NCBI GenBank assembly: GCA_044450345.1
Contig: JBIOIY010000046.1
Location: 1-25,014 of the forward strand
From: Thermodesulfovibrionales bacterium
GTDB taxonomy: Bacteria > Nitrospirota > Thermodesulfovibrionia > Thermodesulfovibrionales > UBA6898
Length of the DNA: 25,014 nt
Direction of reading: 5' to 3'
Shown here: positions 844-22,070 of the stretch, in pieces
Layout of the letters: each line of letters starts with the position of its first letter
How positions within the stretch are numbered: position 1 is the first letter of the stretch
Translations under genes and position numbers: made by a program
The notes under the pieces: generated by a model
What the model was told of the DNA's origin: nothing
What the model saw: only the letters and a program-made list of their open reading frames with translations
Databases searched by the model: none

Positions 844-1611
844 TTATCCGGCCTTCAAAAACGTCTTAATACGACTTTCTCTCTCATGAACACCGCTGGG
901 GCTTAATTTGACTACCTCCGATTTTTTCCAGTTCTGGAAGAGGTCTATGATCTGGTCGAGAGAATCCTGGTGGAGCTGTTCGATCACTTCCCTGTCCGGG
1001 AGGGACGTAATGAGGTTCCTGTCGATAAAATTCCCTATCCTTTCCCTGTTGAAGACCGAGAGGAAGACCATGCCCTTGAAGATCCTCTTGTTTGTCTTGA
1101 AGGAGAAGACGAGACGGTCGAGAGAATTTTCGAGAAAAAGGTCGTTTCGCATCTGGATCTTTCTGTCGATCGCGATGGCCTGGAGCCAGTATTTCTTGTC
1201 TATAATGCAGTCGGCTTTCATCTCCATCACGGTATGCCCGATGTTCCTCCTGTCGGCCGTATACACGTTGTGGGCAACGGTATCGGCGGCAAGATGGCTC
1301 ATGTAGCCGTAGACAAAGGCCTTCTGCTGGTCGGTCTTCGACGCCCTGAGGAGATCGAATGCCACGTCCCAGTTGTGAGAGCTCTTATGGTCAGGCAGGT
1401 ACTGCTTGCCGATGATGATGTCCGCCATCAAATTGCCGTAGAGAAAATCCTTTCTGTATCTCCTGAGAACTTCGAGAAGCCCGGCGGGCAGGAGCGGGCT
1501 GAGAGAAAAAAGCTCATTACCGAGATAGATATGCGTCAGCGGCCCCCACGCGAAAGCCGCGGCAGGGATCAGCAAAAAAGCTGCGACAAGTGAAATTTTG
1601 AATAGTCTCAT
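844..1611 (-). CDS. Secreted zinc-dependent phospholipase C family protein
   Basis: Start at ATG 1611 overlaps the pepA stop (ATGA). Signal peptide MRLFKISLVAAFLLIPAAAFA, then mature N-terminal WGPLTH; motifs SSHNW, GYMSHLAADTVAHN and GHTVME are typical Zn ligands of the Zn_dep_PLPC fold. Confidence 0.8.
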   Translation of the reverse strand: MRLFKISLVAAFLLIPAAAFAWGPLTHIYLGNELFSLSPLLPAGLLEVLRRYRKDFLYGNLMADIIIGKQYLPDHKSSHNWDVAFDLLRASKTDQQKAFVYGYMSHLAADTVAHNVYTADRRNIGHTVMEMKADCIIDKKYWLQAIAIDRKIQMRNDLFLENSLDRLVFSFKTNKRIFKGMVFLSVFNRERIGNFIDRNLITSLPDREVIEQLHQDSLDQIIDLFQNWKKSEVVKLSPSGVHERESRIKTFLKAG

Positions 1612-3059
1612 GCCAGTTCCCTCACGAATTGCAAAAGGAGCCGGACTCCGACGCCTGAGACCCCTTTCGGAATATAAGGTCTTTCCCTTTCGACCCATGC
1701 TGTACCCGCAATATCAAGATGTACCCATGGCATCTCTCCCGCAAATTCTTTCAAAAAGTATGCCGAAGTCACGAGCGATCCTGTCCTGCCTCCTGTGTTT
1801 TTTAAATCGGCAATATCGCTTTTTACATATTCTTTATATTCCTCGAAAAGAGGCATTTCCCAGACCCTTTCATAAACCATGTCGCCGCATCTTTTAAGGG
1901 TATCGAGCAATCCCCTGTCGTTGCCCATCATCGCAATCACCTCGCTGCCGAGGGCTACAGAACACGCGCCGGTAAGTGTCGCGATATCGACGACCGCTCG
2001 CGGCTTGAAACGTTTTGCATAACCGATAGCATCGGCCACGACGAGGCGGCCCTCTGCATCGGTATTTATTATCTCCACAGTCGTCCCGCCGACTGCCCTG
2101 ACGATGTCACCGGGCTTTGTAGCAGACCCCCCAGGCAGATTCTCTGTGGCGGGAAGGACCCCTATGAGATTGATCGGCAGCGCCGCCTCCGATACCGCCT
2201 TCATCACGCCCAGAACGGCAGCGCCGCCGGCCATGTCGTATTTCATCTTCTCCATGCCTTCGGCAGGTTTTAAGGAAATGCCGCCGCTGTCGAAGGTGAT
2301 CGACTTGCCTACAAGCACCAACGGCGCTTTACTCCCGCCTTTGTAGTGAAGCACAACGAATTTAGGAGGTTCGTGAGATCCTTTCGCCACCGCGAGATAT
2401 GCGCCCAGGCCAAGCCTCTGCGCGTCCCTCCTTTCGAGTACCCTCACTGAAAGCTTCCCCTTTCTCAGCGAAAGAGCTGCCTTTGCAAGGTGGGACGGTG
2501 TCATGTCGTTCGACGGGGTATTGATCAGGTCTTTTGCGAAAGAGACCGCCGAGGCCATAGTATCAGCCCAGTCGAGTTCCTGCTTCAGGGCCTTCGAGGG
2601 TTTAGAAAGGACAACAAGGCTGTCCAACGTCTTCCCGTTCTTTTCCTTCTTATATCGGGAGTAGGTATACAAAGAAAGCAAGGCACCCTCCGCAAACAGC
2701 GAAGGGGAGAGTTTAAAAGAAGAAATGACTTTAGAGGACAATGCGGCCTTCCTCATCCCGTTGTCCCTCAAATAAGCCGAAGACCTTCCCCCTGCCTGTC
2801 TTAGCCCCTCGGCAGTGACCTCGTCCTTCTTCCCGAGGCCGGCAAGCAAAATCCATTCGGACTTGAGACCGTCGGGCGCGGTGACCAGGAAGAGCTCATT
2901 TTTTTTGCCGCTGAATTTTTTGGAGAACGCCTTCTTGATCGCCTGCTCAACGAGCCGGCCGAGATAGTCGTACTGCTTTGCCCCGGCCTCTGTCACTGGG
3001 AGGATGAGGGCATCGCAGGCGCAGTCCTTCTCCCTGAGATCTTTTACGGATATATTCAT
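1608..3059 (-). CDS. pepA: Leucyl aminopeptidase (M17)
   Basis: VGKSITFDSGG, MKYDMAG, NTDAEGRL, DIATLTGA and WVHLDIAG motifs; 483 aa. Confidence 0.97.
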   Translation of the reverse strand: MNISVKDLREKDCACDALILPVTEAGAKQYDYLGRLVEQAIKKAFSKKFSGKKNELFLVTAPDGLKSEWILLAGLGKKDEVTAEGLRQAGGRSSAYLRDNGMRKAALSSKVISSFKLSPSLFAEGALLSLYTYSRYKKEKNGKTLDSLVVLSKPSKALKQELDWADTMASAVSFAKDLINTPSNDMTPSHLAKAALSLRKGKLSVRVLERRDAQRLGLGAYLAVAKGSHEPPKFVVLHYKGGSKAPLVLVGKSITFDSGGISLKPAEGMEKMKYDMAGGAAVLGVMKAVSEAALPINLIGVLPATENLPGGSATKPGDIVRAVGGTTVEIINTDAEGRLVVADAIGYAKRFKPRAVVDIATLTGACSVALGSEVIAMMGNDRGLLDTLKRCGDMVYERVWEMPLFEEYKEYVKSDIADLKNTGGRTGSLVTSAYFLKEFAGEMPWVHLDIAGTAWVERERPYIPKGVSGVGVRLLLQFVRELA

Positions 3060-3320: not shown

Positions 3321-3362
3321 CTAAAGATTGACACATAAATGCCATTTGAACGATTATGGAAT

Positions 3363-4538
3363 ATGGAGCAAAGTGAGGGCAATCGTGATTTGTCGAGAAA
3401 AAGCATCGAGGGGATATTCGGGATACCCTTTACAGACGGGAACAAGATGACCTTATTAAAGGGGCGGGACTCCTTCACCGCCATATTCGATGCAGTACGT
3501 ACCGCAAAGGAGTTCATCTGCCTTGCATTCTATATCTTCAGGAACGATGAGACCGGCACCGAACTGGCCGAAATCCTGAGACAGAAGGTATCGGAAGGCG
3601 TAAGGGTCTATATCCTTTACGACCATTTCGGTTCAATAGGCACCCCTGCAGACTTCTGGAAATGCCTCCGTGACTCCGGGATCAGAATACGCGCGTCCCA
3701 CCCCTTCAAGTGGACCTCGCCGTTCCACTATGTCCACAGGGACCACCGCAAACTCATCATTGTCGACGGCCTCTATGCATTTACCGGAGGTCTCAATATC
3801 GCGAATGAATACAGTGGATATCATTTCATAAGGAAAAGGCCCCTAACAAGAAAAAAGGGCTGGAGGGACACGGGCATATTCCTTGAGGGCCCGATAGCCG
3901 TAACACTTTTTGAGGAGTTCAGGAAAAGCTGGGAGATATGGAAAGGCGGGGCCATCTCCTCCGTGAGAAATACGCGTCGCATCGAAGGAGGGCTTCCAGT
4001 GCTCCCGATCTTCGCAAGTTCCGCCAAAGGCAGACGGAAAATGAGGAAACTTCTCTATTACAGCATCGCCAGATCCCAAAGGAGTATATACCTCACCACG
4101 GCCTATTTCACCCCTAGCAGAAGGATGCTCCAGATACTTGAGGACGCAGTAGCTAGAGGAGTGGAAGTCAAGCTGCTCCTGCCGGGCAGGTCCGACATCA
4201 CGGCAGCCCTTTATGCCGCCCGGGCCTATTTTACGAGGCTCACCAGGGCGGGCATCGGGATATATATTTACGGCGGCGAGATACTCCATGCAAAGACCGC
4301 GGTCTTCGACGGAGTCTGGAGCATCATCGGGTCGACGAACCTCGATTTCCAGTCGCTGAGGAGAAACGATGAAGGGAACGTCGGCATACTGGACGAAGAC
4401 TTCGGGGGGCAGATGTGCGATACCTTTGACGAGGACCTGAAAAATTCGGAGAGGGTGGACCTCGAAAACTGGATGAAAAGGCCCTTCGTCGAAAAAATAA
4501 AGGAACGTTTCTTCTCCCTTTTCAAAAAACAGCTCTGA
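3363..4538 (+). CDS. cls: Cardiolipin synthase, ClsB-like (phospholipase D family, no N-terminal TM helices)
   Basis: Two HKD motifs: HRKLIIVDG..AFTGGLN and HAKTAVFDG..SIIGSTNLD. Start is either 3339 or 3363; a TTGACA at 3328 favours 3363. Confidence 0.92.
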   Translation: MEQSEGNRDLSRKSIEGIFGIPFTDGNKMTLLKGRDSFTAIFDAVRTAKEFICLAFYIFRNDETGTELAEILRQKVSEGVRVYILYDHFGSIGTPADFWKCLRDSGIRIRASHPFKWTSPFHYVHRDHRKLIIVDGLYAFTGGLNIANEYSGYHFIRKRPLTRKKGWRDTGIFLEGPIAVTLFEEFRKSWEIWKGGAISSVRNTRRIEGGLPVLPIFASSAKGRRKMRKLLYYSIARSQRSIYLTTAYFTPSRRMLQILEDAVARGVEVKLLLPGRSDITAALYAARAYFTRLTRAGIGIYIYGGEILHAKTAVFDGVWSIIGSTNLDFQSLRRNDEGNVGILDEDFGGQMCDTFDEDLKNSERVDLENWMKRPFVEKIKERFFSLFKKQL

Positions 4539-5352: not shown

Positions 5353-5946
5353 TCAAATCGGGCCTTGAAAGGCCCCCGCGATGGCCGCCTTCGCCTCGTC
5401 AATCCCCTCCGCAAGCGCCCTGCTTAATGCCTCCGCAAGGGACGTAAAGCCGCGGTCTCCGAGTTTTATCTTCTTTTCGAAAGAACCCCGGTAGAGCGTC
5501 TTGCCGTCGGGCGAGAGAAGACCCAGATCGAATGACAAATCGGCGAAAGAACCGCTGCCGTTGTCTAACCTTTCAAACCTTTTCAGATCAATTTCGAGGG
5601 AATAGAATGCGGGCGGGACAAAGTTAGAGGCCCTCACCTCCTTGAATAAGGCCGCTGCCGAAAGGGCGTTTCTGAACGACTCCCTCACCATCTCGGCGGG
5701 AGGGGAGTCCCACTTCGAATACCGTGCGATATCGAGTTGATAAGGTGAGGTCCTGTAGGCGATGTAGGGCTGGGAGAGATAGCGCGGGGAATGCACAACG
5801 AGATCAAGAGAAGCCTCCGTCTTCGTCTTCGCCGCCAGCCCTTCGTTTTTCAGCGCAAGGCTGTATATCTTCGTCTGAGGCATGGCGCATGCCGCGCAGA
5901 TGCCGACCAAAAGGAACGCAATAAACGCATGCCGGAATTTTCTCAT
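5353..5946 (-). CDS. PqiC-like ABC-transport auxiliary lipoprotein
   Basis: Lipoprotein signal ending CAAC, then TKIYSL; SPRYL..IAYRTSPYQL..YSKWDSPPAEM matches the ABC_trans_aux pattern. Lies directly after mlaD. Alternative start 5961. Confidence 0.87.
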   Translation of the reverse strand: MRKFRHAFIAFLLVGICAACAMPQTKIYSLALKNEGLAAKTKTEASLDLVVHSPRYLSQPYIAYRTSPYQLDIARYSKWDSPPAEMVRESFRNALSAAALFKEVRASNFVPPAFYSLEIDLKRFERLDNGSGSFADLSFDLGLLSPDGKTLYRGSFEKKIKLGDRGFTSLAEALSRALAEGIDEAKAAIAGAFQGPI

Positions 5947-5947
5947 A

Positions 5948-6850
5948 TTACTCCCCCTCACCCTTCCCTTCTTTGTACACGACGCTCCACGGCTTCTGTT
6001 TTACTTCCTGCAGGAGGTCCTGCAGGTCCTCAGCCGTCCTCGTGACCGTATCCACCAGGTCGCCGAGACCTGCCGCCTGCCGGTCGACAAGCCTGTCGAC
6101 AGACCTCGTCGCTTTATCTGCCGATTTCGCCGCAGATTCGAACGATTTGATCATCTCCCCCGCCCTGTCGAGGTCCTCTCTCGCCTTCTTTATCAGGCCG
6201 GCGACCTCCGGCTTGTTCGTCTTCACCAGGTCCTCGACCTCGCCCAGGACGCCTTCGAGTTTGTCGGTAGTAGACTTCAGGGAGGAGGCGACCTTTTCGA
6301 TACTCGCGGAGCCGCTCACAATCGCCCTGTTGGTATTGCCTATGAGCCTCTCGATCTCGGCGACGTTCTTGGGGCTGAAAATTTTGTCCACGTCCTTTAC
6401 AAGGCTTTCTACTGTCTGAGAGAGGCCGTCGAGTTTCGTCATGATCTGAGCAAAGTCGGCCGATTCTTCCGAGGGTATCTCGCCTCCCGGCATTATCCGT
6501 CCCTCCGTCGTCTTGTCGACCGCAAGGAGCATAAAAATATCCCCGACAAAACCGTTCTGGGTGATCATGGCCCTCGTCCCTTTGTACACTGGGGTCCCCT
6601 GTTTGAGACCTATCTCCACCGTCACACGCCGGCCGGGTCCTGTCGGCTCTTTGATTGCCTTGACGCTGCCCACCCTTACACCCCCCAGCTTTACCTGCGT
6701 GCCGACTTCCAACCCCGTGGCGTTCATTACCTTCACGGAATATAGATCGACCTTTTCGAAAAAACGGCTTCCCCCGATGAGGATCACCAGGGCGCTAAGT
6801 ACAAAAAAAGAAGAGACTATAATTATCCCCGCCTTAATTTCTTCCTTCAT
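5948..6850 (-). CDS. mlaD: MlaD/MCE-domain protein with long helical C-terminal region
   Basis: N-terminal TM helix; ATGLEVGTQVKLGGVRVGSV MCE motif; coiled-coil-like tail ending KQKPWSVV. Confidence 0.92.
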   Translation of the reverse strand: MKEEIKAGIIIVSSFFVLSALVILIGGSRFFEKVDLYSVKVMNATGLEVGTQVKLGGVRVGSVKAIKEPTGPGRRVTVEIGLKQGTPVYKGTRAMITQNGFVGDIFMLLAVDKTTEGRIMPGGEIPSEESADFAQIMTKLDGLSQTVESLVKDVDKIFSPKNVAEIERLIGNTNRAIVSGSASIEKVASSLKSTTDKLEGVLGEVEDLVKTNKPEVAGLIKKAREDLDRAGEMIKSFESAAKSADKATRSVDRLVDRQAAGLGDLVDTVTRTAEDLQDLLQEVKQKPWSVVYKEGKGEGE

Positions 6851-6870
6851 TGCTCAGTCACCTCCGGTCG

Positions 6871-7656
6871 TCAGTCGCCGACGATAAACCTGAAATAATC
6901 GTCGGGCGAATAGGTCTTCGTCTCGGGTTTTCTTTCGAGAAACATCCGTATCCTCTCGTTTTCCGATCTTCTCAGTTCGTCGAGTACGCCGGAGAAGATG
7001 ACCTCTCCCGCGTCGAGCATAATAACATAATCCGCGATCGTGAATACACTCGGCAGTTCATGCGTTACGACGACTATCGTAATACCAAACACATTCCTCA
7101 GCTTCAGTATAAGGTCGTCGAGACCGGCCGCCGTCACCGGGTCGAGACCGGCGGAGGGCTCATCGAAGAACAGCAGTTCCGGATCGAGCGCGATCGCGCG
7201 CGCAAGTCCGGCCCTTTTCTTCATCCCTCCGGAGAGCTGGGAAGGATAAAACTTCTCGAAGCCGGACAGTCCGACCAGATCGAGCTTCATCCGGACCATG
7301 ATCATGATAGTCGACTCATTCAGCCCGGTATGTTCCCGTATCGGGAGGGCGACGTTTTCCGCGACAGTCATCGAATTAAGAAGCGCTGCGCCCTGAAAGA
7401 GCACCCCCATCTTCTTCCTGACTTCGTTCAGTTCTTCTTCCTCCATCGCCGCGATATCCCTGCCGTTGATCGAGATCTTCCCCCTTGTCGGCCTGAGGAG
7501 ACCGATGAGATGCTTCAGGAGCGTGCTTTTTCCGCAGCCGCTCCCTCCGAGAATGACGGACGTCTTGCCCCTGGGAACGGAGATGTTGATACTCTTCAGT
7601 ATCTCCCTCTCGCCGTAATGGGTCTGGAGACCTGTGACCTCAATCGCGTTTTCCAT
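6871..7656 (-). CDS. mlaF: MlaF-type ABC ATPase
   Basis: Walker A GGSGCGKST, LFQGAAL, LSGGMKKRAGLARAIALDP, DEPSAGLDP, VVTH. Confidence 0.95.
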   Translation of the reverse strand: MENAIEVTGLQTHYGEREILKSINISVPRGKTSVILGGSGCGKSTLLKHLIGLLRPTRGKISINGRDIAAMEEEELNEVRKKMGVLFQGAALLNSMTVAENVALPIREHTGLNESTIMIMVRMKLDLVGLSGFEKFYPSQLSGGMKKRAGLARAIALDPELLFFDEPSAGLDPVTAAGLDDLILKLRNVFGITIVVVTHELPSVFTIADYVIMLDAGEVIFSGVLDELRRSENERIRMFLERKPETKTYSPDDYFRFIVGD

Positions 7657-7659
7657 ATT

Positions 7660-8472
7660 CTAGGTAAAGTAATAAAAGAGTGTCGTAAAAAACAGGTCGA
7701 AGACGATAACAAGAAAGATGGACGCGACCACCGACGCCGTGGTCCTCCTCCCCACCTCTTCCGCGCCTCCCTCGACCTTGAAACCCTGATACGCTCCGAC
7801 AATCGTGATCACTATACCGAAGGCCCACGCCTTTACGAGTCCGGTCACGACGTCCTTTACCAAAAGCGCATTGACAGACTGCTGGAAATAATTGTACGGG
7901 TGGATGCCGATGACCGTCGTCGAAAGGAGGAAGCCCCCGAATATCCCTATCATATCGGAAAAGACAGTCAAGGCCGGCAGCATGAGCATGAGAGCAAGCA
8001 GCTTCGGCGTGACGAGGAACCTCACCGGGTTGATCCCCATCGTGACGAGGGCATCCACCTCTTCGGCGGATTTCATCGAACCGATCTCAGCGGCGAAGGC
8101 CGAGCCGCTCCTTCCGGCGACGATTATGGCGGTAAGTATCGGCCCGAGTTCACGCGTGATCGAGACCCCGACGAGGTTGGCGACGTATATCAGGGCGCCG
8201 ACCCTCTTGAGCTGATAGGCTGCCTGCAGGGCCAGGATTATTCCTACGAAGAGAGAGATGACGGCAACGATGGGAACGGCGTTATATCCGGCCTTCACTA
8301 TCTCGGATACGGTCGCCCTGACACGCACCGGCTTCCCCTTAATAGGTGAGACGAAGGTCCAGTAGAAGGTCTCGTTTATGATCCTCGAAGCATAGTGTAT
8401 GTCCCTCCGGACCGGGATAACACGCCGGCCGATGAAACTGAAAAACGCCTCAGCCCTTGAAGGCATCATCAA
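7660..8472 (-). CDS. mlaE: MlaE-type ABC permease
   Basis: RELGPILTAIIVAGRSGSAFAAEIGSMK..EEVDAL..MGINP and GGAEEVGRRTTASVV signatures. Start among 8472, 8469 and 8466. Confidence 0.95.
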   Translation of the reverse strand: MMMPSRAEAFFSFIGRRVIPVRRDIHYASRIINETFYWTFVSPIKGKPVRVRATVSEIVKAGYNAVPIVAVISLFVGIILALQAAYQLKRVGALIYVANLVGVSITRELGPILTAIIVAGRSGSAFAAEIGSMKSAEEVDALVTMGINPVRFLVTPKLLALMLMLPALTVFSDMIGIFGGFLLSTTVIGIHPYNYFQQSVNALLVKDVVTGLVKAWAFGIVITIVGAYQGFKVEGGAEEVGRRTTASVVASIFLVIVFDLFFTTLFYYFT

Positions 8473-8779
8473 GGGTCCCGCATATATCGAATACCTTGTC
8501 CAGCTTCGAGAAAATGAATATCTCGACGATCCTTTCAGGTATCCCGAGGAGCTTCAATTTCCCGCCATGGGACATCATTCCTCTAAGCCCTTCGACCAGC
8601 GTCGCTATCCCCGAACTGTCGATGTACGAGACCTCCCTGAAATCGATGAGCAGCATGGGGGCTTTTTTACCGACAAAACTCAGCAATTCCTTCCGCAGTA
8701 CAGGGGACGAATACATGTCGATGTCACCCGACAGCTCAAAGACTTTTACCCCTTTATGTTCCGTTATCTCGATCTTCAT
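8450..8779 (-). CDS. rsbV: STAS-domain protein (RsbV/SpoIIAA-like anti-anti-sigma; possibly MlaB equivalent)
   Basis: 109 aa; LSGDIDMYSSPVLR and VSYIDSSGIATLV with the conserved phosphorylatable Ser. Confidence 0.92.
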   Translation of the reverse strand: MKIEITEHKGVKVFELSGDIDMYSSPVLRKELLSFVGKKAPMLLIDFREVSYIDSSGIATLVEGLRGMMSHGGKLKLLGIPERIVEIFIFSKLDKVFDICGTLDDAFKG

Positions 8780-9209
8780 TTCTCTCCTTCAAATATCTGA
8801 CCAGTCTGAGGCGGTTGCCGATTTTTTTCCTTCCATCGAATTCAAAAACGTCGAAGCACCTCTTGATCAAATGGACGCCGAGCCCTCCGGGCCTCACCTC
8901 CTCGAGTTTCCTTCCCGTTATCCCCCGGGGGTCGGCCTTGATGCCGGTGTCTTCAATGACCACCTCGAACCGCTCGCGGTCGACCTTATACCGGACAACG
9001 ATCTTTTTGCCGGCGTCTCCCCCATATGCATACTTTATTACATTCGCGCAGGCTTCATCAACCGCAAGTCTTATCTGCTCTATCATCTCCTCGCCGAGTC
9101 CGTGCATCTGCCCCATCTTTGCCGTCACCTCTCTCACTACACAGAGGTACTTGGGATCGGAAGGCACTGTCACAACCACCGCGTTTTTTATCTCAGCCCC
9201 CCCATCCAA
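8754..9209 (-). CDS. rsbW: RsbW/SpoIIAB-like serine kinase (HATPase_c_2)
   Basis: LAVDEACANVIKYAY (N box), IEDTG (G1), RPGGLGVHLI (G2). TTG start is uncertain. Confidence 0.9.
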   Translation of the reverse strand: MDGGAEIKNAVVVTVPSDPKYLCVVREVTAKMGQMHGLGEEMIEQIRLAVDEACANVIKYAYGGDAGKKIVVRYKVDRERFEVVIEDTGIKADPRGITGRKLEEVRPGGLGVHLIKRCFDVFEFDGRKKIGNRLRLVRYLKERNEDRDNGT

Positions 9210-10482
9210 GTTCCACTATTGTCAAGTCGTCAGCTCTGTCCCCCATCCCCGAAAAATCATCGACATAATCGACAAGCCTGTCGATAAGCTGTTCCTCATA
9301 CATATGAGCCTTTACGAACTTGACGACTGTATCGAAGCCCAGCCTCTGTCCGTCCCTGTCCTTCGCATCAAAGACGCCGTCCGTCATCAGAAGAAGCCTG
9401 TCGCCGTTCCTCAGCGTGAAGACATCCGAAGGATATTCGGTCGATATGATCCCCAAAGGAGGACCGCCCGCAATAGACATAACCCTTACCTCGCCGTCCG
9501 AAAGCCACAAGAAAGGGGGATGCCCGGCAACCGCCACCTGAAAATTACCGTTTGTGGTGTCCACGACTACATAAATGCAGGTCAGGAACATCCCTCGCGG
9601 CGCCCCCGCCAGAGACACGTTCAGCCGGTCCAGGGCGGCCGAGGGCGAATCCGAAAGGCGTGAGATATATCTGAAATCGCTGCTCACCTTTGCCATATAA
9701 ATGGCGGCTGAAATACCCTTGCCGGAAACGTCTCCGATGAGGACCCCTGTCCTGTCCCCTGCCGGTTCGACAAAATCATAGATGTCTCCCCCGACCTTGG
9801 CGGCAGAGACGTTCTTCGCCGATACGGTGAGATTGCCCTTCCTGAAAACAGGGGAAGCCGGAAGAAAACTCTTCTGGATGGCGGACGCGATATCCAGCTC
9901 CTGTTTCATACGTTCCCTTTCGATCGATTCCTTGTGATAAAGGGAGTTCTCTATGGCTATCGCGAATTGCCTGCAGAGGAGCTGGAAAATCTCCATGTCG
10001 TAATCCTTCTTGGGGTTGATCACCTCCGCAACGCCGATAAGGCCGCCCCTGCCGATAAGAGGGACCGCGATAATGCTCTTTGTCGTAAAGCCGGTCAGTT
10101 TGTCGGCGTCTCTGCAAAATCTGTCGTCGGAACCGACATCTTCGATGACAAGCGGTTTGAGGTTCTCGGCCACCCACCCGGCGATGCCCTGACCCATGTC
10201 GAGAGTCACTTGCTTTTTCAGCAACTCCGAAGTTGAACCTTCCTCGCAGAGGGCAACCTCGAACTCGAGCTTGTTCGTGTCTTTGTTATAGATAAGAATG
10301 GAGCAGGCCCCGGCGTCCATGACGGCCTTCGCCTTTTCCATCACAATAGTGATCAATTCACTGAAATCGAGGGTAGAAGAGATGACCGACGAGAGCTCCA
10401 TCAGCGTCTTAAGGTCCTCAACCTTCTTTTCCATGCCCCTCAGGACCTCGCCGGATATTCCAACGGTAGGTTTTCTTACCAC
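9193..10482 (-). CDS. rsbU: GAF-domain PP2C/SpoIIE phosphatase (RsbU-like)
   Basis: N-terminal GAF (MGQGIAGWVAE..D.RF..TKSIIAVPL); PP2C motifs VGGDIYD, IGDVSGKG, MTDGVFD and DDLT. Start GTG 10482 or ATG 10434. Confidence 0.93.
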   Translation of the reverse strand: MVRKPTVGISGEVLRGMEKKVEDLKTLMELSSVISSTLDFSELITIVMEKAKAVMDAGACSILIYNKDTNKLEFEVALCEEGSTSELLKKQVTLDMGQGIAGWVAENLKPLVIEDVGSDDRFCRDADKLTGFTTKSIIAVPLIGRGGLIGVAEVINPKKDYDMEIFQLLCRQFAIAIENSLYHKESIERERMKQELDIASAIQKSFLPASPVFRKGNLTVSAKNVSAAKVGGDIYDFVEPAGDRTGVLIGDVSGKGISAAIYMAKVSSDFRYISRLSDSPSAALDRLNVSLAGAPRGMFLTCIYVVVDTTNGNFQVAVAGHPPFLWLSDGEVRVMSIAGGPPLGIISTEYPSDVFTLRNGDRLLLMTDGVFDAKDRDGQRLGFDTVVKFVKAHMYEEQLIDRLVDYVDDFSGMGDRADDLTIVELGWGG

Positions 10483-10761: not shown

Positions 10762-10789
10762 TTCACGGTTAGCAATTAGCTGTTATAAT
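10762..10789 (+). promoter_or_regulatory. Sigma70-type promoter with extended -10 for the nodIJ-like operon
   Basis: TGTTATAAT at 10781-10789; TTCACG 16 nt upstream of the TATAAT; ATG follows 7 nt after the -10. Confidence 0.6.
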
Positions 10790-10796
10790 ACTACCT

Positions 10797-11528
10797 ATGC
10801 ATATCGTCGCCGCAAAAGACCTTACGAAGAACTACGGCGACCTGCGTGCGGTCGACCATATCGATTTCGAGATCGAAAAGGGCGAATGCTTCGGCTTCCT
10901 GGGCCCCAACGGCGCGGGCAAGACAACGGTCATGGGGGTGATATACTGTTTTATGCCTCCAACGTCGGGCGAGGTGAAGGTCTTCGGCATCGATGTCTGC
11001 AAGGACCCCTCCCGGATAAAATCGAGAATAGGGGTAATGCCCCAGGACGACAGCCTCGACCCCGACCTTTCGGTATTTGAAAACCTGATCGTCTACGCCA
11101 GATATTTCGATATCCCTAAGAAAGTCTCGGTCCCTTCTGCCAGGGAGCTACTTGAGTTCGTCGGGCTTGAGGACAAGGCGGACGTCGGGATCAAGGACCT
11201 CTCGGGCGGCATGAAGCGCAGACTGCTCCTCGCAAGGGCGCTCATCAACAATCCTGAACTTCTTATCTTCGACGAGCCGACCGTCGGCCTCGACCCCTAC
11301 AGCAGGCATTCGGTGTGGGAGAAGATGGAGGCGCTCAAATCAAAAGGGGTCACGCTTGTCCTGACGACACACTATATGGAAGAGGCGGAAAAGATCTGCG
11401 ACAGGGTGGCTATCATGAATTCGGGCAAGATCGTGACGATCGATACACCGTCGCATCTTATGGGCACGTACGAAGGCACCCTCGAAGAAGTATATCTGAA
11501 ACTCACGGGGAGGCCCCTTGCAGCTTAA
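10797..11528 (+). CDS. nodI: ABC-2 type exporter ATPase (NodI-like)
   Basis: GECFGFLGPNGAGKTT, IGVMPQDDSLDPDLSV, LSGGMKRRL, DEPTVGLDP, LTTHYMEEAE. Confidence 0.88.
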   Translation: MHIVAAKDLTKNYGDLRAVDHIDFEIEKGECFGFLGPNGAGKTTVMGVIYCFMPPTSGEVKVFGIDVCKDPSRIKSRIGVMPQDDSLDPDLSVFENLIVYARYFDIPKKVSVPSARELLEFVGLEDKADVGIKDLSGGMKRRLLLARALINNPELLIFDEPTVGLDPYSRHSVWEKMEALKSKGVTLVLTTHYMEEAEKICDRVAIMNSGKIVTIDTPSHLMGTYEGTLEEVYLKLTGRPLAA

Positions 11529-12273
11529 ACGCGCCTTCAGGGTCTGGCAGCGGCATGCGAAGGTCTACACCAAGCTCTATAAGTCGAGCATTGCCCTGAA
11601 CTTCGTGGAGCCGGTGCTATACCTTGCGGCCCTGGGCCTCGGCCTCGGCGCATACGTAAAAGAAATAAAGGGAGTACCTTACGTCAATTTCATTGCGCCT
11701 GGCATCATCGCCTCCTCCGCGATGTTCGCCGCGACCTATGAATGCTCCTACGGTACCTATGTGAGAATGACCTACCAGAAGACCTTTGACGCGATTTTGG
11801 CCACTCCGGTAAACGTCAATGACCTGATCGCCGGCGAGATGATGTGGGGAGCGACAAAGAGCATGCTCTACGGAACGATCATCATGATTGTCATCTCCGC
11901 CTTCGGCCTCGTCGGCTCCCCTCTTCTGACGGGTGCAATCCCTCTGCTATTTATAAGCGGCCTCATCTTTGCGGAAATATCCCTTATATTCGTCGCAATC
12001 GTCCCGGGCATCGACTCTTTCAACTATTTCTATACACTCCTGATGACCCCCATGTTCCTTTTCTCTGGCATCTTTTTCCCCGTCGACACGCTGCCTCCGC
12101 TTGTCGCCAAAATAGCCTTTTTCACCCCGCTCTATCATCTGGTCAATATCTGTCGGTCGTTCTCCTCCGGGGTGCCGATGAAATCCGCATGGGACATTCT
12201 CTGGATTGTCATCGTCGCACTGGTCCTCGCGCCCTATGCCTTCAGGCTCATGAGGAAGAGACTGGTAAGATAG
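11518..12273 (+). CDS. nodJ: ABC-2 type exporter permease (NodJ-like)
   Basis: EPVLYLAALGLGLG, YVNFIAPG, QKTFDAILATP, TPMFLFSGIFFP, PLYHLV. TTG start overlaps the nodI end. Confidence 0.88.
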   Translation: MQLKRAFRVWQRHAKVYTKLYKSSIALNFVEPVLYLAALGLGLGAYVKEIKGVPYVNFIAPGIIASSAMFAATYECSYGTYVRMTYQKTFDAILATPVNVNDLIAGEMMWGATKSMLYGTIIMIVISAFGLVGSPLLTGAIPLLFISGLIFAEISLIFVAIVPGIDSFNYFYTLLMTPMFLFSGIFFPVDTLPPLVAKIAFFTPLYHLVNICRSFSSGVPMKSAWDILWIVIVALVLAPYAFRLMRKRLVR

Positions 12274-12526: not shown

Positions 12527-14440
12527 ATGTCAATTGAAAAATCCGTTGATAACAAAAGCCTTGATCCTGCTGTCCAGCAGATGATCGCCAAGGCCGGGGA
12601 GAAGGGGATAACTACTGTATGGGACAGGTACGAAGCCATGAACCCTCAATGCGGGTATGGTGAATCCGGGCTTTGCTGCCGTAACTGCTTACAGGGACCG
12701 TGCAGGATAAACCCTTTCGGGGATGAGCCAAAAACAGGAATATGCGGCGCAACTGCGGACGTCATGGTAGCCAAGTGGCTCGACAGGGCGATAGCTGCCG
12801 GAACAGCCGCCCACTCCGGCCACGCTAAGCACCTTGCGCATACCATGATGAAGATGGCCAAGGGACTGGCCCCTGATTACAGCATAAAGGACACTGCTAA
12901 GCTCAAAGCAGTTGCAACTCGTATCGGAATTTCCGTTGAGGGCAGAACCGATATGGAGATCGCCGGAGATTTGGCTGCTGCTGCCCTCGCTGACTTCGCG
13001 GAGAAGGATACCCCTGTGCTGTGGGCAGCCACTGTGGTGACCGAGGGCCGTGTAAAGGCGCTTTCCGCCATAGGGGCCGTGCCGAAGGGAATAGACCATG
13101 AGGTTTCCGAGATCATGCACCGAACACTCTACGGGGTGGATGCCGACGCGGTGAATCTGCTTCTTGCGGGCATCAGGTGCGGCGTTGCGGATCTGGCCGG
13201 GTGCTATATGGGAACAGACCTTGCGGATATCATGTTCGGCACTCCCACTCCCGTGGTATCAAAAGCCAATATGGGAACGTTGAAGGCTGACATGGTCAAT
13301 ATCGCCGCCCATGGGCATAACCCGGTCCTCTCGGAGATGATTGTAACTGTTGCCGAAAACATGAAGCAGGAGGCTGTGGCTGCCGGGGCCACAGGGATAA
13401 ATGTAGTGGGCATATGCTGCACGGGGAATGAACTCCTGGAACGACATGCCATTCCTTCCTGTACGCATTCGGTGAGCCAGGAGATGGCGCTTCTGACGGG
13501 TGCCCTTGACGCAATCGTCGTCGACTACCAATGCATCATGCCCTCGCTCGTGACTGTTGCCGAATGTATGGGCTCGAAAATAATAACGACCATGGACATC
13601 TGCAAGATTACCGGGGCGGAGCATATTGAATTTACGGAAGAGGCCGCTGCTGAAAAGGCCAAACAGGCAATCAGGGTGGCCATCGAGGTATTCAAAAAGA
13701 GGAAAGGCCAGCCAGTAGACATCCCTGAGGTTCAAAGCAATGTCGTTGCAGGATTCTCGGCCGAGTCCATAGTGGCTGCACTTGCGAAAGTCGATGCAAA
13801 AGACCCGCTGAAGCCCCTTGTCGATAATATCAAAAACGGCAACATCCGGGGGGTCTGCCTGTTTGCCGGATGTAATAATGTCAAGGTGCCACAAGACAGG
13901 AACTTCAAGATAATGGCAGAGAAACTGCTTAAGGAAAACGTTCTTGTAGTTGCTACAGGATGCGGCGCAGGCGCGCTGATGAGACACGGCTTCATGGATC
14001 CGGCCAATGTAGGTAACTTGTGTGGAGACGGACTGAAGGCAGTGCTTACAGCCATTGGTGAAGCCAATGGACTTGGCGGCCCGCTTCCTCCGGTGCTGCA
14101 TCTTGGTTCATGTGTTGATAACTCGCGGGCCGTGGCGATCGTTGTTGCTCTCGCTAATTACCTGGGTGTGGATACTGACAAGCTGCCTGTTGTTGCCTCT
14201 GCCGCTGAGGCGGTATCCGAGAAAGCCGTGTCCATCGGTGTCTATGCCGTTGCCGCCGGACTGCCGACACACGTAGGGGTAATGCTGCCTGTCCTGGGCA
14301 GTCCTTCGGTTACTGAAATCCTTACTGACAAAGTGAAGGGACTGACAGGCGGATATTTCATTGTGGACCTGGACCCTGAATCAGCTGCTGATAAACTCTT
14401 ATCTGCAATCGATGAGCGCCGAAAAGGTCTGGGGCTCTGA
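12527..14440 (+). CDS. cooS: Anaerobic Ni-dependent carbon monoxide dehydrogenase catalytic subunit
   Basis: D/B-cluster motif CGYGESGLCCRNCLQGPC..GICG; catalytic AAHSGH; C-cluster ligands HGHNP, GICCTGNE, VVDYQC, AGCNN, ATGCG and GSCVDN; EKA; SD AAGGAGG upstream. Confidence 0.98.
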   Translation: MSIEKSVDNKSLDPAVQQMIAKAGEKGITTVWDRYEAMNPQCGYGESGLCCRNCLQGPCRINPFGDEPKTGICGATADVMVAKWLDRAIAAGTAAHSGHAKHLAHTMMKMAKGLAPDYSIKDTAKLKAVATRIGISVEGRTDMEIAGDLAAAALADFAEKDTPVLWAATVVTEGRVKALSAIGAVPKGIDHEVSEIMHRTLYGVDADAVNLLLAGIRCGVADLAGCYMGTDLADIMFGTPTPVVSKANMGTLKADMVNIAAHGHNPVLSEMIVTVAENMKQEAVAAGATGINVVGICCTGNELLERHAIPSCTHSVSQEMALLTGALDAIVVDYQCIMPSLVTVAECMGSKIITTMDICKITGAEHIEFTEEAAAEKAKQAIRVAIEVFKKRKGQPVDIPEVQSNVVAGFSAESIVAALAKVDAKDPLKPLVDNIKNGNIRGVCLFAGCNNVKVPQDRNFKIMAEKLLKENVLVVATGCGAGALMRHGFMDPANVGNLCGDGLKAVLTAIGEANGLGGPLPPVLHLGSCVDNSRAVAIVVALANYLGVDTDKLPVVASAAEAVSEKAVSIGVYAVAAGLPTHVGVMLPVLGSPSVTEILTDKVKGLTGGYFIVDLDPESAADKLLSAIDERRKGLGL

Positions 14441-14500
14441 TGTTATATGAGGTTCTCGGCAGCGATGAATGCGAACACAATATAAAATAAGGAGTATGCC

Positions 14501-15007
14501 ATGCATGAGCCAAAAGAAATATTTGTTGATATAAGCAGATGTACCGCATGCAAAACCTGCGAGATCGCATGTGCGGTTGCTCATTCCGAAAGCAAGAACC
14601 TTTACGGTGCATTGCTCGAAAAACCGGCACCCAAACGCAGAGTCTATGTGGAATGGGTGTCTCCTGATGCAAACGTGCCAATCCTCTGCCGTCACTGCGA
14701 GGACGCACCCTGCATGCATGCCTGTATCAGTGGGGCAATAAGTCGAAATGAGAAATCTGTCATTATTACAGATAGCGATAAATGTATAGGATGCTGGACC
14801 TGCGTAATGGTCTGTCCTTACGGTGTTATCGGCCGTCATCTGGAGACCCACAAGTCATATAGGTGCGACAGGTGTCCCGATAGAGAGACTCCTGCCTGTG
14901 TTGCTTCATGTCCTACAAAAGCGCTGATCTACAGGACCGTGGAATCATACTCAAGGGATGTCAGGAAAGATGCTGCTTCTGCAACGGTCGCGCGCGAGGG
15001 GAGGTAA
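14501..15007 (+). CDS. cooF: CooF-like 4x[4Fe-4S] electron transfer protein
   Basis: CTACKTCEIAC, CRHCEDAPCMHAC, CIGCWTCVMVCPYG, CDRC..PACVASCP; SD AAGGAG. Confidence 0.93.
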   Translation: MHEPKEIFVDISRCTACKTCEIACAVAHSESKNLYGALLEKPAPKRRVYVEWVSPDANVPILCRHCEDAPCMHACISGAISRNEKSVIITDSDKCIGCWTCVMVCPYGVIGRHLETHKSYRCDRCPDRETPACVASCPTKALIYRTVESYSRDVRKDAASATVAREGR

Positions 15008-15011
15008 AATT

Positions 15012-16262
15012 ATGCCGGACAATATGGATTACCTGATAATAGGCGGCAGCGCAGCAGGAATGGCGGCGGCACAGGTTATAAGGGAGCAGGATCCAAAGGG
15101 CACTATCATGGTGTTGTCGGAAGAGCCGGATATGCCGTATTTCAGGCCTATGATCCCCTATGTAGTGAGCGGCAAGAAAAAAGTGCAGAGCATAGGCCTT
15201 TCGGGTAACGGACCATATACAAGGGGTGGCATCGATATTCGCATCGGAGCAAGAGTCGATTCGGTGGATGTCTCTCGTCAAACGGTAAGCATCAACAGCA
15301 AGGACCGGCTGTCGTTCCGCAAGATCCTCTTTGCGACCGGCAGCCGTCCCTACATACCCCCGGAAATAGAGTCGACGGCTACGAAAGGTGTGTTCGCTCT
15401 TCGGACATTGGCCGATGCGAGGGCCATGGCTCAAAGGGCTGCCGACTCCGACCATGTCGTGATGCTCGGGGGCGGCTTGCTCAATCTCAAGGCGGCCTTT
15501 GCTCTTCTTGAAAGGGGATTGAAAGTCACTCTGGTGGTTAACTCTCCTGAGGTCCTTTCACAGCTTATGGACCCAGGGGATGCGGGATTGATCCGTAAAG
15601 CCCTTGATATGGCGGGACTCAAAATATTAACAGGGCGCAGTGCGAAAGGTATTATTTCAGATAAAAGCGGTGTTACTGGAGTTTCCCTTGATGACGGCTC
15701 TGAGATGCCATGCCGGATGATATGTATAGGAAAAGGGGTAAGGCCGAATATTGATTTTCTGTCCGGCAGTGAGATAGCAATAGACAAGGGTATTGTCGTG
15801 GACGGTTATACGGCCTGTAATAAGCCGCAGACATTTGCCGCCGGTGATGTGGCCGTTACATTTGATCCTGTGTCAGGCAAAAGGATAATGACCGGCCTCT
15901 GGACAAACGCGGTTGAGATGGGCAGATGTGCAGGCTATAACATGGCGGGGAGAAAGACCGCCTATTCCGGAACATTCGGGATTATGAATGCTACACAGGT
16001 TGCGGACACGCCTTTTGTCTCCATGGGCATTGTTCATACCAAAGATGCTGGTTATGAAGTGCATGTCCGTGCAACCGGATCAACCTACCGGAAGGTGGTT
16101 TTCAGCCCTGACGGTGAAAGACTGGTTGGGGTGGTATTTATAGGTGATATTACCGGCGCCGGGATGTACCGATATATCATCAGGGAGAAGATGCAGATCA
16201 ATAGGATTAAATCACATATTGTGGAGCAGAAACTGCATTATGGACATTTTCTAAAAAGCTGA
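15012..16262 (+). CDS. FAD-dependent NAD(P) oxidoreductase (NirB N-terminal/rubredoxin reductase-like), CODH-associated
   Basis: IIGGSAAG, ATGSRP, MLGGGLLNLK and FAAGDV motifs. ATG 15012 is preceded by GGAGGT, so the track start at 14958 is unlikely. Confidence 0.92.
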   Translation: MPDNMDYLIIGGSAAGMAAAQVIREQDPKGTIMVLSEEPDMPYFRPMIPYVVSGKKKVQSIGLSGNGPYTRGGIDIRIGARVDSVDVSRQTVSINSKDRLSFRKILFATGSRPYIPPEIESTATKGVFALRTLADARAMAQRAADSDHVVMLGGGLLNLKAAFALLERGLKVTLVVNSPEVLSQLMDPGDAGLIRKALDMAGLKILTGRSAKGIISDKSGVTGVSLDDGSEMPCRMICIGKGVRPNIDFLSGSEIAIDKGIVVDGYTACNKPQTFAAGDVAVTFDPVSGKRIMTGLWTNAVEMGRCAGYNMAGRKTAYSGTFGIMNATQVADTPFVSMGIVHTKDAGYEVHVRATGSTYRKVVFSPDGERLVGVVFIGDITGAGMYRYIIREKMQINRIKSHIVEQKLHYGHFLKS

Positions 16263-17232: not shown

Positions 17233-18288
17233 ATGATAAGAAAGATCAACCATTTTATCGCAACAGGCGTCTTTATCACTTTATGTCTTGTATCGGGCTG
17301 CGCAACGACTGCAAATACTGTTAAGGTCGACGACGTCACCGCTGCAAAACTGAGGTCCGAGGTTACCGTGTACGACTCTAAAAAACTGAGCGGGCTCGAA
17401 TATACTACCGTCGGGGAAATTCATGCCACTGCATGCGGAAACCGGGAGAATGGGATGGACCAACTGAGATCTATTGCTCATTCGGCCGGCGCCAACGGTA
17501 TTGCAAAAATAAACTGCGGCAGTTTACTTGGGCCGAGTCTTATGCAGAATTGTTTGACTACCGTAATGTGTGAGGCCGTTGCCATTAGGGTCGGCACAAA
17601 GGCAGTAGAAGCGGAAAAAATCAAAACAGAGAGAGTCGAAGAGTCCGTGAAGAAGCAGGTCCTGTCACAGGGCGAAGGGTTTACGCTGGGAAAACTTCCC
17701 CTTGTGGTAACGAGTTACGATGCGGTCGGCGAGGCAAAGGATGTTGAAATTATTTTTTCGGGAAATTACATGACAAGAGGGAAAATAGTGAAGCGGGATG
17801 AAGAAAATAATCTGGCGATAATAGCCTTTGAAGAATTTCGCAAGGTGCCGGCCGGTTTCCGGATTTTCCCGTCTTATAAGGTCAAACCGGGACAGGAAAT
17901 CTACATTATCAGTTGGTTCGGGGCGACACAGCCGGGAGAAAAACCGGGGATTACGAAAGGGGCCGTTTCTGCTACGGACGGTCCCGGAGGGGACAGCAGG
18001 TATTTCGGAATAACCGCACAGCGCAATCTGTCAAACGGAGGGAGTCCCTTGATTGACAGCCAGGGGAGACTTATCGGTATCGTGACGCCTGCGCCGGGCA
18101 AGGCATCTTCAGCCCATGCAAAAGGGCATGCGCCCCAGGGGACACACTTTGCCCTCAAGAGTAACGTGCTCTTAAATCTCTACCCGGAAATAGAAAACCT
18201 GATCACATCCGAAAGCGAGCCCTCGCTCTCCCCTGAGCAGATATTCGAAGCCTATAGCAATTCTGTCGTTTCCTTGATACCCCGTTAG
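17233..18288 (+). CDS. Lipoprotein: RcsF-like N-terminal domain plus degenerate trypsin-like (S1C) domain
   Basis: Lipobox VSGC; four Cys in RcsF-like spacing; the C-terminal domain follows the HtrA-type layout but reads TSYDAV, NNLAII and NLSNGGSPL at the catalytic motifs. Confidence 0.75.
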   Translation: MIRKINHFIATGVFITLCLVSGCATTANTVKVDDVTAAKLRSEVTVYDSKKLSGLEYTTVGEIHATACGNRENGMDQLRSIAHSAGANGIAKINCGSLLGPSLMQNCLTTVMCEAVAIRVGTKAVEAEKIKTERVEESVKKQVLSQGEGFTLGKLPLVVTSYDAVGEAKDVEIIFSGNYMTRGKIVKRDEENNLAIIAFEEFRKVPAGFRIFPSYKVKPGQEIYIISWFGATQPGEKPGITKGAVSATDGPGGDSRYFGITAQRNLSNGGSPLIDSQGRLIGIVTPAPGKASSAHAKGHAPQGTHFALKSNVLLNLYPEIENLITSESEPSLSPEQIFEAYSNSVVSLIPR

Positions 18289-20780: not shown

Positions 20781-20900
20781 GCTGTTTCGTCGGTCAGGTA
20801 TCCGATCTGGGACATGATCCGCTCCGGGTCGACGGTTTTCACGGTATAACTGTCACACCCGGCGGACAAAAGCTTTTCTCGGTCATCTGACATCCAACCG
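20777..20900 (-). pseudogene. C-terminal remnant of a DivK-like single-domain response regulator
   Basis: MSDDREKLLSAGCDSYTVKTVDPERIMSQI matches the last third of DivK-type receivers (AM.GDREK.L.AGCD.YI.KPID). The N-terminal acidic pocket and phospho-Asp are absent. Stop overlaps the next ATG (ATGA). Confidence 0.75.
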
Positions 20901-20927
20901 TTCAAATGCATCGAAAAGCTCCGGTAT

Positions 20928-22070
20928 TTATTTTTTTCCCTTGCCGCGTTTTTCAACATCTTTGATTTTCTTCAATCCTCCTGCTGCCCTGGTATTATCA
21001 GGGGAGATGCTTAAGGCCTTCTCAAACAACCCCTTTGCCCTTATCGGGTAGCCCAGTTCCAGATACACAAGACCAAGCTCCGTCAGATATCTGGCATTGT
21101 AGGGTTCGAGTCTTCGAGCCCCTTCGAACTCCTTTTCCGCCTCCCTGAATTTATTTTGTATTGCCAGGGTCAACCCATAATTATAATGATATTCAGATAT
21201 TGTGGCGTCATAATATGTTGCCTCTTGAAAAAGACGCTCCGCATCCTGATAATTTTTCTTTTTCAGGTGATTCTTCCCCTCTTCAAAGGCGGACCTCGCT
21301 TTGTCTTGGACTGCTGCCAGTCTTGCAGGTTTGATGGTTAATACTTTGTCGTATTCTCTTCTCTTTTCCGGGTTTGACAAGATTGAGTATGCCACAGATA
21401 CATAGGAGAATATATCGCATGACTTGTCCTTGAGAGAATCGTCGCCAAGGTGGAAGTGCACATCGGGATGATACTTTTTTACGGCCTCACGGTATGCCGC
21501 CTTGATTTCGTCAAACGAGGCATCATCCTTGACTCCCAAAACGCCATAATGTCCGAGACGTTCACATTTGCTGTACATATCCTCTATCATTTCTTTAGTC
21601 TCAGGATCTATCTTTCTTCCTATTTTCTCCTCACGTATCTCACCCACCACCACCTCAGACATCTCAATGTTGGCGGCGCGGTCTTCCTGCAGCCCAAGCG
21701 TCCCTATCAGCGCTTCAATCTTTGTTAAAAGTTCTTCTTTCTTGATCGGTTTTTCCAGATAGTCGTCCGCATGAAATGTCTTGATGACATCGAATTTATA
21801 TTTCAGCCCTTTATAAATACCTGACATGATAATAATCTTGGGAGGCTTTTGCAGCCCCGCATCTCCCTTGACTTTCTTGCAGAGCTCGAATCCGTGTATT
21901 CCCGGGATAAGCCCATCGATGATCGCCAGATCAGGGCTTTCCTTTATGATTATCTGGTAAGCTTCCTCGCCGTTTTTGCTGGTTATGATGTTAATATCCT
22001 TATAATATCTGAGAAAGGCATTAATCATGTTCAGGATATCCTGGTCATCATCTACAATTAGAACCTTCAT
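20928..22070 (-). CDS. Receiver domain - DnaJ (J) domain - TPR protein
   Basis: REC (VDDD, IIDGLIPGIHG, MSG, EKP); J domain HYGVLGV..ASFDEIKAAYREAVKKYHPD..AYSILSNPEKRREYD; three C-terminal TPR-like repeats; SD GGAGGAG. Confidence 0.9.
   Translation of the reverse strand: MKVLIVDDDQDILNMINAFLRYYKDINIITSKNGEEAYQIIIKESPDLAIIDGLIPGIHGFELCKKVKGDAGLQKPPKIIIMSGIYKGLKYKFDVIKTFHADDYLEKPIKKEELLTKIEALIGTLGLQEDRAANIEMSEVVVGEIREEKIGRKIDPETKEMIEDMYSKCERLGHYGVLGVKDDASFDEIKAAYREAVKKYHPDVHFHLGDDSLKDKSCDIFSYVSVAYSILSNPEKRREYDKVLTIKPARLAAVQDKARSAFEEGKNHLKKKNYQDAERLFQEATYYDATISEYHYNYGLTLAIQNKFREAEKEFEGARRLEPYNARYLTELGLVYLELGYPIRAKGLFEKALSISPDNTRAAGGLKKIKDVEKRGKGKK

Follow-up and report, generated by a model that had tools for sequence, protein, structure and literature searches.

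The window studied here, a stretch of 25,014 nucleotides (nt), is one whole contig (JBIOIY010000046.1, assembly GCA_044450345.1) of a 3.19-Mb, 91%-complete genome of a Thermodesulfovibrionales bacterium. Among named organisms it is closest to Nitrospirota (Thermodesulfovibrionia), and its MlaE is 93% identical to that of 'Ca. Sulfobium mesophilum'. Seven minus-strand genes lie together at 5353-10482: a GAF-PP2C phosphatase, an RsbW-type kinase, a stand-alone STAS protein, mlaE, mlaF, a long mlaD and a PqiC-like lipoprotein. Read in that order, the first four genes overlap one another by 17, 26 and 23 nt, mlaF and mlaD each follow a gap, of 3 and 20 nt respectively, and the last two genes overlap by 14 nt. 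A reading made earlier from the DNA alone (the sequence-only reading) had described seven same-strand genes overlapping or at most 20 nt apart, and we found all of them at that span, each name resting on Pfam and NCBIfam profile matches. It had also noted that the STAS gene overlaps the mlaE start, that the 270-residue MlaE has no fused STAS and that the STAS carries a DSSG motif. All of this holds: the motif is at residues 54-57, and the overlap of the STAS stop with the mlaE start (23 nt here) is visible in the junction sequences of most relatives.

What we observe is a real, conserved coupling of a partner-switching module to a lipid transporter. Every part comes from a known family, and the coupling of a kinase and a phosphatase to an mla operon is the new element. 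We propose that the operon encodes a lipid bridge of the Brucella Mla-Pqi chimeric (Mpc) type that is gated by phosphorylation of a free, MlaB-equivalent STAS protein, and we give this proposal, which is built on comparisons of sequences, a probability of about 0.6. As for its parts, the STAS is very likely the substrate of the kinase, and it probably binds the transporter.

The operon

The gene content is that of an Mpc system: MlaE, MlaF, a long MlaD and a PqiC-like lipoprotein, with no MlaC in the operon. The PP2C, the RsbW-type kinase and the STAS are encoded together with their catalytic residues, as in a partner switch. The GAF-PP2C, presumed to be both sensor and eraser, is the genome's sole full SpoIIE match (one other match is weak). 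There are three further mlaE operons in the genome, none adjoining a STAS. The genome's three other STAS genes lie away from those operons, so within this assembly (91% complete) the earlier statement that mlaB occurs nowhere else is borne out. The true start of the kinase is possibly a few codons downstream of the annotated one, and the PqiC-like gene likely begins at an ATG at 5946, with a lipobox-like Cys read from the sequence.

An internal promoter had been named beforehand as something that would speak against the coupling. Our promoter scan gave 5 sites where 2.9 +/- 2.1 were expected, which is not above chance, and we neither claim nor exclude an internal promoter. Rfam gave 0 matches in the window. 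Where the STAS gene meets mlaE (8467-8444) there is a hairpin resembling a terminator; we looked at it as a possible conserved element and rejected it, as only 9/60 related junctions passed a loose hairpin-plus-T test.

Conservation of the gene order

We compared the best 80 of 541 loci with MlaE relatives, 60 of which form a close Nitrospirota group. The order PP2C-kinase-STAS-mlaE is unbroken in 57/60 of these Nitrospirota loci; of the other three, two run into contig ends and one retains STAS-mlaE alone. Conservation of gene order was a check set beforehand, and the order proved to be conserved. All seven genes are present in order in 40 of the 60, and the remaining 20 consist of 8 contig-end cuts and 12 real rearrangements. 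Where mlaF is missing from the locus, an orthologue lies elsewhere in 3/3 genomes tested, and where the long mlaD-pqiC pair is missing it lies elsewhere in 4/5. The operon is split in Magnetobacterium, Magnetominusculus and some others (L099, L100, L103, L046, L047, L065; L175-L180), with STAS-mlaE, mlaF and mlaD-pqiC at separate loci, all retained in the genomes tested.

We also looked at 41 whole genomes (our own and 40 relatives, a set which overlaps with the 60 loci). An mlaE orthologue (at least 66% identity) is found in 18/41 and a kinase orthologue (at least 50%) in 16/41, and the kinase orthologue is always inside this operon (16/16). The 23 genomes that remain after those with mlaE have weak matches only (37% identity or less) or none. 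A search that started from the STAS, blind to mlaE, gave 15 matches in 251 Nitrospirota genomes, and 14 of these were directly before mlaE. At the fifteenth (L307:920-2357) a REC-GGDEF diguanylate cyclase gene sits between STAS and mlaE.

The arrangement extends beyond this group. Scanning metagenomes with MlaF (80 loci) gave 20 more kinase-STAS-mlaE loci, mostly outside the Nitrospirota clade of the tree. The phosphatases of those that we checked have other sensors (FHA-GAF, REC, GAF) and are placed upstream or downstream, and one locus from Thermodesulfobacteriota (L106) reads kinase-STAS-mlaEFD-pqiC with no adjacent phosphatase. From the rearrangements, L106 and the variable phosphatases, we take the constant core to be STAS-mlaE, usually with the kinase. 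Single-protein queries outside Nitrospirota found few close relatives, in 7/201 genomes of the phylum of G044 and 3/251 of the phylum of G041. In one locus (L212:4524-5741) a STAS gene lies directly before mlaF, and no mlaE was detected upstream in that locus.

Two sets of conserved residues in the STAS

Among 154 loci with an MlaE match, 109 have a separate STAS, 9 have a fused STAS and in 36 none was detected, these last being mostly loci with a long-N-terminus MlaE or truncated ones. We dropped 4 of the 109 because they were truncated upstream, which leaves 78 STAS copies with an adjacent kinase and 27 without. By kinase-less we mean only that no kinase is adjacent; the four Acidobacteriota genomes tested carry other RsbW-like genes.

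The two groups differ at the residues expected to face a kinase. Asp21 is present in 78/78 kinase-adjacent copies and in 3/27 kinase-less ones, Tyr52 in 78/78 and 16/27, and Ser55 in 78/78 and 17/27, with Thr in 8 more of the latter. Glu63 behaves differently, being invariant in all 105 mlaE-linked STAS proteins with or without a kinase and found in 2/26 other STAS rows. E. coli MlaB has His at this position. This pattern suggests that the STAS bears the marks of two partners, the kinase and the transporter.

The STAS thus stays with mlaE at 27 loci that have no adjacent kinase. We built a quick IQ-TREE tree of MlaE and a FastTree tree, used only to see whether such loci fall into several groups, and in the MlaE tree 26 of the 27 fall into four separate groups, one nested inside the kinase-bearing Nitrospirota. 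L197, a single locus, is a fifth case. Here (L197:2442-4169) a PAS-PP2C gene stands directly before STAS-mlaE with no kinase between. It keeps Asp21, so its kinase may be recently lost or moved.

The DSSG motif was considered as evidence for either role and set aside, as E. coli MlaB has Asp51-Thr52 at this place and 25/27 kinase-less copies keep Ser or Thr.

Kinase and phosphatase

The best solved relative of the kinase is B. subtilis RsbW (6m36, E value 1.6e-12), although it does not reach the RsbW equivalog cut-offs (67 vs 145). Its Arg26, Glu52 and Asn56 are present in 59/59 aligned rows. The first two correspond to RsbW Arg23 and Glu49. The structure of RsbV with RsbW shows Arg23 of RsbW hydrogen-bonded to RsbV Asp23, and Glu49 binding Ser56 (PMC7340262); the equivalents here are Arg26 and Glu52 of the kinase with Asp21 and Ser55 of the STAS.

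An NKFDE-type motif is a mark of GAF domains that bind cyclic nucleotides. Such a motif is not evident in our GAF sequence, and we dropped a cyclic-nucleotide ligand as unsupported. A second STAS gene in the genome (G000:C32:27166-30380) follows a 551-residue protein with a C-terminal RsbW-like domain, and similar proteins of about 550 residues are found in many relatives.

The docking face of MlaF

In E. coli, Thr52 and Gln22 of MlaB contact Lys128 and Thr114 of MlaF, while Tyr261 and Met127 of MlaF contact Leu55, Leu59 and Leu90 of MlaB (PMC7784689). By alignment our MlaF has the same residues, as Thr110, Met123, Lys124 and Tyr254. On the other side, Ile58, Val62, Leu93 and Ser55 of the STAS align with MlaB Leu55, Leu59, Leu90 and Thr52, at 21% identity between the two proteins. 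The triad of Thr, a hydrophobic residue and Lys is present in 97/101 separate-STAS loci, 20/27 loci with a long-N-terminus MlaE and 0/17 STAS-less paralogues, counted with allowed substitutions that were set after the columns had been viewed. The 17 controls include the genome's own three other MlaFs.

The C-terminal tail of MlaF follows the same line. Counted after Phe239, it has at least 22 residues in 99/99 separate-STAS loci with an aligned tail and a median of 13 in the 27 loci with a long-N-terminus MlaE. A helix motif in the tail, which was written after the sequences had been viewed, is found in 90/99 of the former and 0/27 of the latter. The AlphaFold2 model of our MlaF has a helix at 251-258, with a predicted local distance difference test score (pLDDT) of about 70. 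Taken together, these features suggest that MlaF keeps a docking surface for an MlaB-like STAS.

Table 1. Genes and predicted functional sites of the operon (coordinates are positions in the window; aa, amino acids)
Feature	Position	Strand	Basis
GAF-PP2C (SpoIIE/RsbU-type) phosphatase, 429 aa	9193..10482	-	Pfam GAF 39-177, SpoIIE 242-425
RsbW/SpoIIAB-type serine kinase, about 140-151 aa	8754..9209	-	HATPase_c_2
Stand-alone STAS, 109 aa, RsbV-like fold	8450..8779	-	TIGR00377, 69.4 bits (cut-off 53.45)
Ser55 of STAS, predicted phospho-acceptor (RsbV Ser56, E. coli MlaB Thr52)	8615..8617	-	Alignments
Asp21 of STAS (RsbV Asp23 equivalent)	8717..8719	-	Conservation; RsbV-RsbW structure paper (PMC7340262)
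Glu63 of STAS, candidate transporter-facing residue	8591..8593	-	Invariant in mlaE-linked STAS
MlaE permease, 270 aa	7660..8472	-	TIGR00056 above cut-off; PF02405 only, no fused STAS
MlaF-like ATPase, 261 aa, with Thr110/Met123/Lys124	6871..7656	-	Alignment with E. coli MlaF
MlaF C-terminal extension, residues 240-261, short terminal helix	6874..6939	-	Aligns with the E. coli 'handshake' tail
Long MlaD/MCE protein, 300 aa	5948..6850	-	N-terminal hydrophobic segment, MCE 37-104, long C-terminal extension
PqiC/MpcA-like ABC auxiliary lipoprotein	5353..5961	-	PF03886 (ABC_trans_aux); NF033620 weak (22.7 bits vs 200)

A proposed mechanism

The operon would encode an Mpc-type envelope lipid transporter in which MlaE2F2 is joined to a bridge of long MlaD and a PqiC-like cap at the outer membrane; we infer an envelope-spanning, lipid-moving complex from these parts. 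The STAS module would be free and not fused to MlaE. It may dock on the helical subdomain of MlaF as E. coli MlaB does, with Ser55 against Lys124, and in this state it would be unphosphorylated and would support assembly or ATPase activity. Judging from the conserved catalytic and docking residues, the kinase would bind the STAS through Arg26 and Asp21 and phosphorylate Ser55.

Phosphorylation would then weaken binding of the STAS to MlaF, by analogy with E. coli, where the substitution T52E in MlaB lowers the MlaF pull-down (PMC7367683). MlaF would leave MlaE or lose its ATPase activity, and transport would stop. The GAF-PP2C, presumably sensing some cytoplasmic signal, would remove the phosphate and transport would resume. 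Lineages that lost the kinase would keep the STAS as a constitutive subunit.

Points against the proposal

Several observations weigh against this gate. The first is the family of the STAS, which by profile and predicted fold is RsbV-like and not MlaB. Its best solved relatives are TM1442 and RsbV (E values of about 1e-13), with MlaB at 0.015. The AlphaFold2 model (pLDDT 94) reaches VIA Z scores of 18.4 with RsbV and 13.0 with P. aeruginosa MlaB. It includes a strand at 98-100 and a helix at 103-108; these are the fifth strand and the final helix, both missing from MlaB. The MlaB profile NF033618 gives 21.2 bits against a cut-off of 90, while the marks of an anti-anti-sigma factor that we tested are there: TIGR00377 above its cut-off, the full fold, Ser55, Asp21 and Tyr52. 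Substitution of MlaB Trp29 and Tyr88 kept the E. coli complex from being purified (10.1101/2020.06.04.133611), and neither residue is kept here. The sequence-only reading had taken this STAS to be the MlaB subunit, and we would keep that as a statement of role, given that the STAS stays with mlaE after loss of the kinase and MlaF keeps the contact residues; as a statement of family it does not stand.

Other points concern the counts. Asp21 is uncommon in the control STAS proteins too (5/26), and we had to give it up as a universal requirement for kinase binding, as an unrelated RsbW-STAS pair (L266) has Thr there. The kinase-adjacent rows come largely from one clade (58/78, being 57 Nitrospirota and L106), so they do not count as independent events. 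The STAS-less MlaF controls represent few clades, and 14/17 were checked for a STAS only within about 1.5 kb. Lys124 alone was tried as a marker of STAS partnership and rejected: it was clean on 7 controls and then turned up in 10/17.

The remaining points concern the linkage and the model systems. Where mlaF or mlaD-pqiC has been relocated, STAS-mlaE stays, so the tightest link of the STAS is to mlaE and not to mlaF, and the overlap of reading frames may itself preserve that junction. In E. coli the MlaF tail is dispensable for MlaB binding, and MlaB T52A is inactive yet still bound, which the authors found hard to reconcile with simple phosphoregulation (PMC7367683). Veillonella MlaF has a short tail and no MlaB (PMC10665443).

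Alternative explanations

Transporter as input. Here the STAS would bind MlaF or MlaE, and the state of the transporter would set the amount of free STAS, which titrates the kinase off another target: an RpoD paralogue, FliA, an extracytoplasmic function (ECF) sigma factor or a non-sigma effector. The full anti-anti-sigma fold of the STAS and the RsbW Arg23 equivalent in the kinase agree with this, as do the persistence of the module beside mlaE where mlaF or mlaD moved away and the REC-GGDEF gene between STAS and mlaE at one locus. The genome also offers targets. Read by length and sequence, its eight Sigma70_r2 matches comprise five RpoD-like, two ECF-like and one FliA-like protein, and the RpoD-like paralogues are possible targets of an RsbW-type protein; this, too, counts against our proposal. 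So does Chlamydia, where RsbW controls the housekeeping sigma factor, sigma66, and the outputs of SypA and BtrV are likewise non-canonical (PMC8256260). The five RpoD-sized paralogues lie on contigs C25, C60, C6, C21 and C5 of G000, and relatives carry one to five.

Set against this, none of the eight matches is on this contig, as the sequence-only reading had said of the window, and the flanks listed, which cover only some of the loci, showed no sigma gene. A kinase that binds a sigma factor encoded elsewhere, together with a STAS that does not bind MlaF, had been named beforehand as a refutation, and SigB/F/G (TIGR02980) is over its cut-off in 0/41 genomes, with incomplete assemblies, and in 1/14 control genomes. 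The sub-cut-off matches listed are almost all in long, RpoD-sized frames. This absence removes the canonical target and leaves the RpoD paralogues, FliA and the ECFs. In addition, lineages without a kinase retain the STAS and the transporter, and the sensor of the phosphatase varies between loci (GAF, FHA-GAF, REC, PAS), as expected if the input enters there. Overall we think this reversed arrangement unlikely, but it is the main rival to gating, and the sequence-only reading had offered both.

Co-transcription only. An ordinary partner switch could simply share the mla operon, with a STAS that binds the kinase and the phosphatase and never the transporter. The RsbV-like sequence and fold and the lost MlaB Trp29 and Tyr88 fit such a case, many MlaEFD systems function without MlaB (PMC10665443), and overlapping frames can hold genes together. 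We nevertheless find it improbable. At least four groups without an adjacent kinase still have the STAS beside mlaE, including loci with no overlap between the genes; these STAS copies lose Asp21 and keep Glu63; the MlaF triad and tail track the presence of the STAS; and no orthologue of the kinase turned up anywhere but beside mlaE.

Opposite sign or another contact. It would surprise us greatly if phospho-Ser55 paired with MlaF Lys124 and activated the transporter, or if the STAS bound the cytoplasmic N-terminus of MlaE more than MlaF: Lys124 does face the acceptor residue in E. coli (PMC7784689), BtrV binding is promoted by phosphorylation (PMC8256260), and STAS-mlaE is the most stable junction, with the fused domain of Mpc sitting at the MlaE N-terminus, but in E. 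coli the T52E substitution makes MlaB bind MlaF less well (PMC7367683), and Lys124 is present in 28/28 kinase-less lineages and so needs no phosphate.

Comparison with known systems

The gated lipid bridge that we favor is closest in its transporter genes to Mpc of Brucella abortus (MpcEFDA), which also has MlaE, MlaF, a long MlaD and a PqiC-like protein, no MlaC and a STAS associated with the permease (PMC12436622). The difference is that the Brucella STAS, a homologue of MlaB, is fused to MpcE, whereas here it is a free 109-residue protein whose phospho-acceptor is intact and whose gene comes after those of a kinase and a sensor phosphatase. E. coli MlaFEDB shares the separate STAS gene in the mla operon, the equivalents of T114, M127 and K128, the C-terminal helix of MlaF and the Ser/Thr acceptor. 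However, its MlaB is a minimal 97-residue STAS without strand 5 and the last helix, for which the available text of PMC7367683 gives no known kinase, and its transporter has a short MlaD with MlaC and MlaA.

On the signalling side, the PP2C, kinase and RsbV-like STAS resemble the RsbU-RsbV-RsbW-SigB system of B. subtilis, including the equivalents of Asp23/Arg23, Tyr53, Ser56 and Glu49 (PMC7340262). In our case there is no SigB/F/G in the operon, and the genes are tied to a transporter. Vibrio SypE/SypA, Bordetella BtrUVW and Chlamydia RsbUVW are alike in that they act on something other than a neighboring alternative sigma factor, but none is described in the available text of PMC8256260 as acting on an ABC transporter ATPase.

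Neighboring genes

Divergent from the operon is a pair of ABC-2 type exporter genes (ATPase and permease, 10797-12273, plus strand), with a sigma-70-like site at 10762-10789; in L055, L058 and L067 (3/60 loci) a 243-residue ATPase likewise sits divergently at this place. Two genes related to lipids are near the transporter operon, one zinc-dependent phospholipase C-like (844-1698, minus strand) and one PLD/cardiolipin-synthase-like (3339-4538, plus strand). Farther along are a cluster of carbon monoxide dehydrogenase (Prismane family), 4Fe-4S ferredoxin and FAD oxidoreductase genes (12527-16262, plus strand) and a signalling cluster (18285-24426, minus strand) of REC-PAS-GAF-GAF-HD, REC-DnaJ-TPR and PilZ-HisKA-HATPase-REC-REC-Hpt hybrid kinase proteins.

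Implications

A search of the full-text literature, subscription journals aside, gave no title or abstract describing a kinase and a phosphatase tied to an mla operon. The word 'kinase' does not occur in the available text of two comparative MCE/Mla surveys (PMC10665443, PMC5561183) or in that of 10.1101/064360, and these STAS genes may be listed as MlaB in Supplementary Dataset 1 of PMC10665443, which gives the distribution of MlaB. Kolich et al. 2020 (PMC7367683) raised the phosphorylation of MlaB and left it open; the available text of that paper has no evidence for it from cells and no known kinase. This operon supplies what the question calls for: a kinase with its phosphatase, a Ser to accept the phosphate and an ATPase to match. 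As these parts are all small and for the most part soluble, tests in vitro are within reach, and the natural kinase-less STAS copies are ready controls.

MlaFs of another branch, whose tail is like the E. coli handshake, are likewise found linked to the kinase module (L308:1427-5207; L218). We suggest, tentatively and with somewhat less than even confidence, that this is a widespread and possibly ancestral form of the Mla/MCE systems. Its STAS subunit would be a genuine partner-switching phosphoprotein, served by a kinase and a sensor phosphatase of its own, and traffic of lipids between the membranes would be switched post-translationally. MlaB of the E. coli type, the Acidobacteriota STAS without a kinase and the STAS fused to the Mpc permease would then have lost that control. 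If the gate is real, a partner-switching module would have an ABC transporter, and not a sigma factor, as its direct target, and this would account for the STAS fold of MlaB and its conserved Thr.

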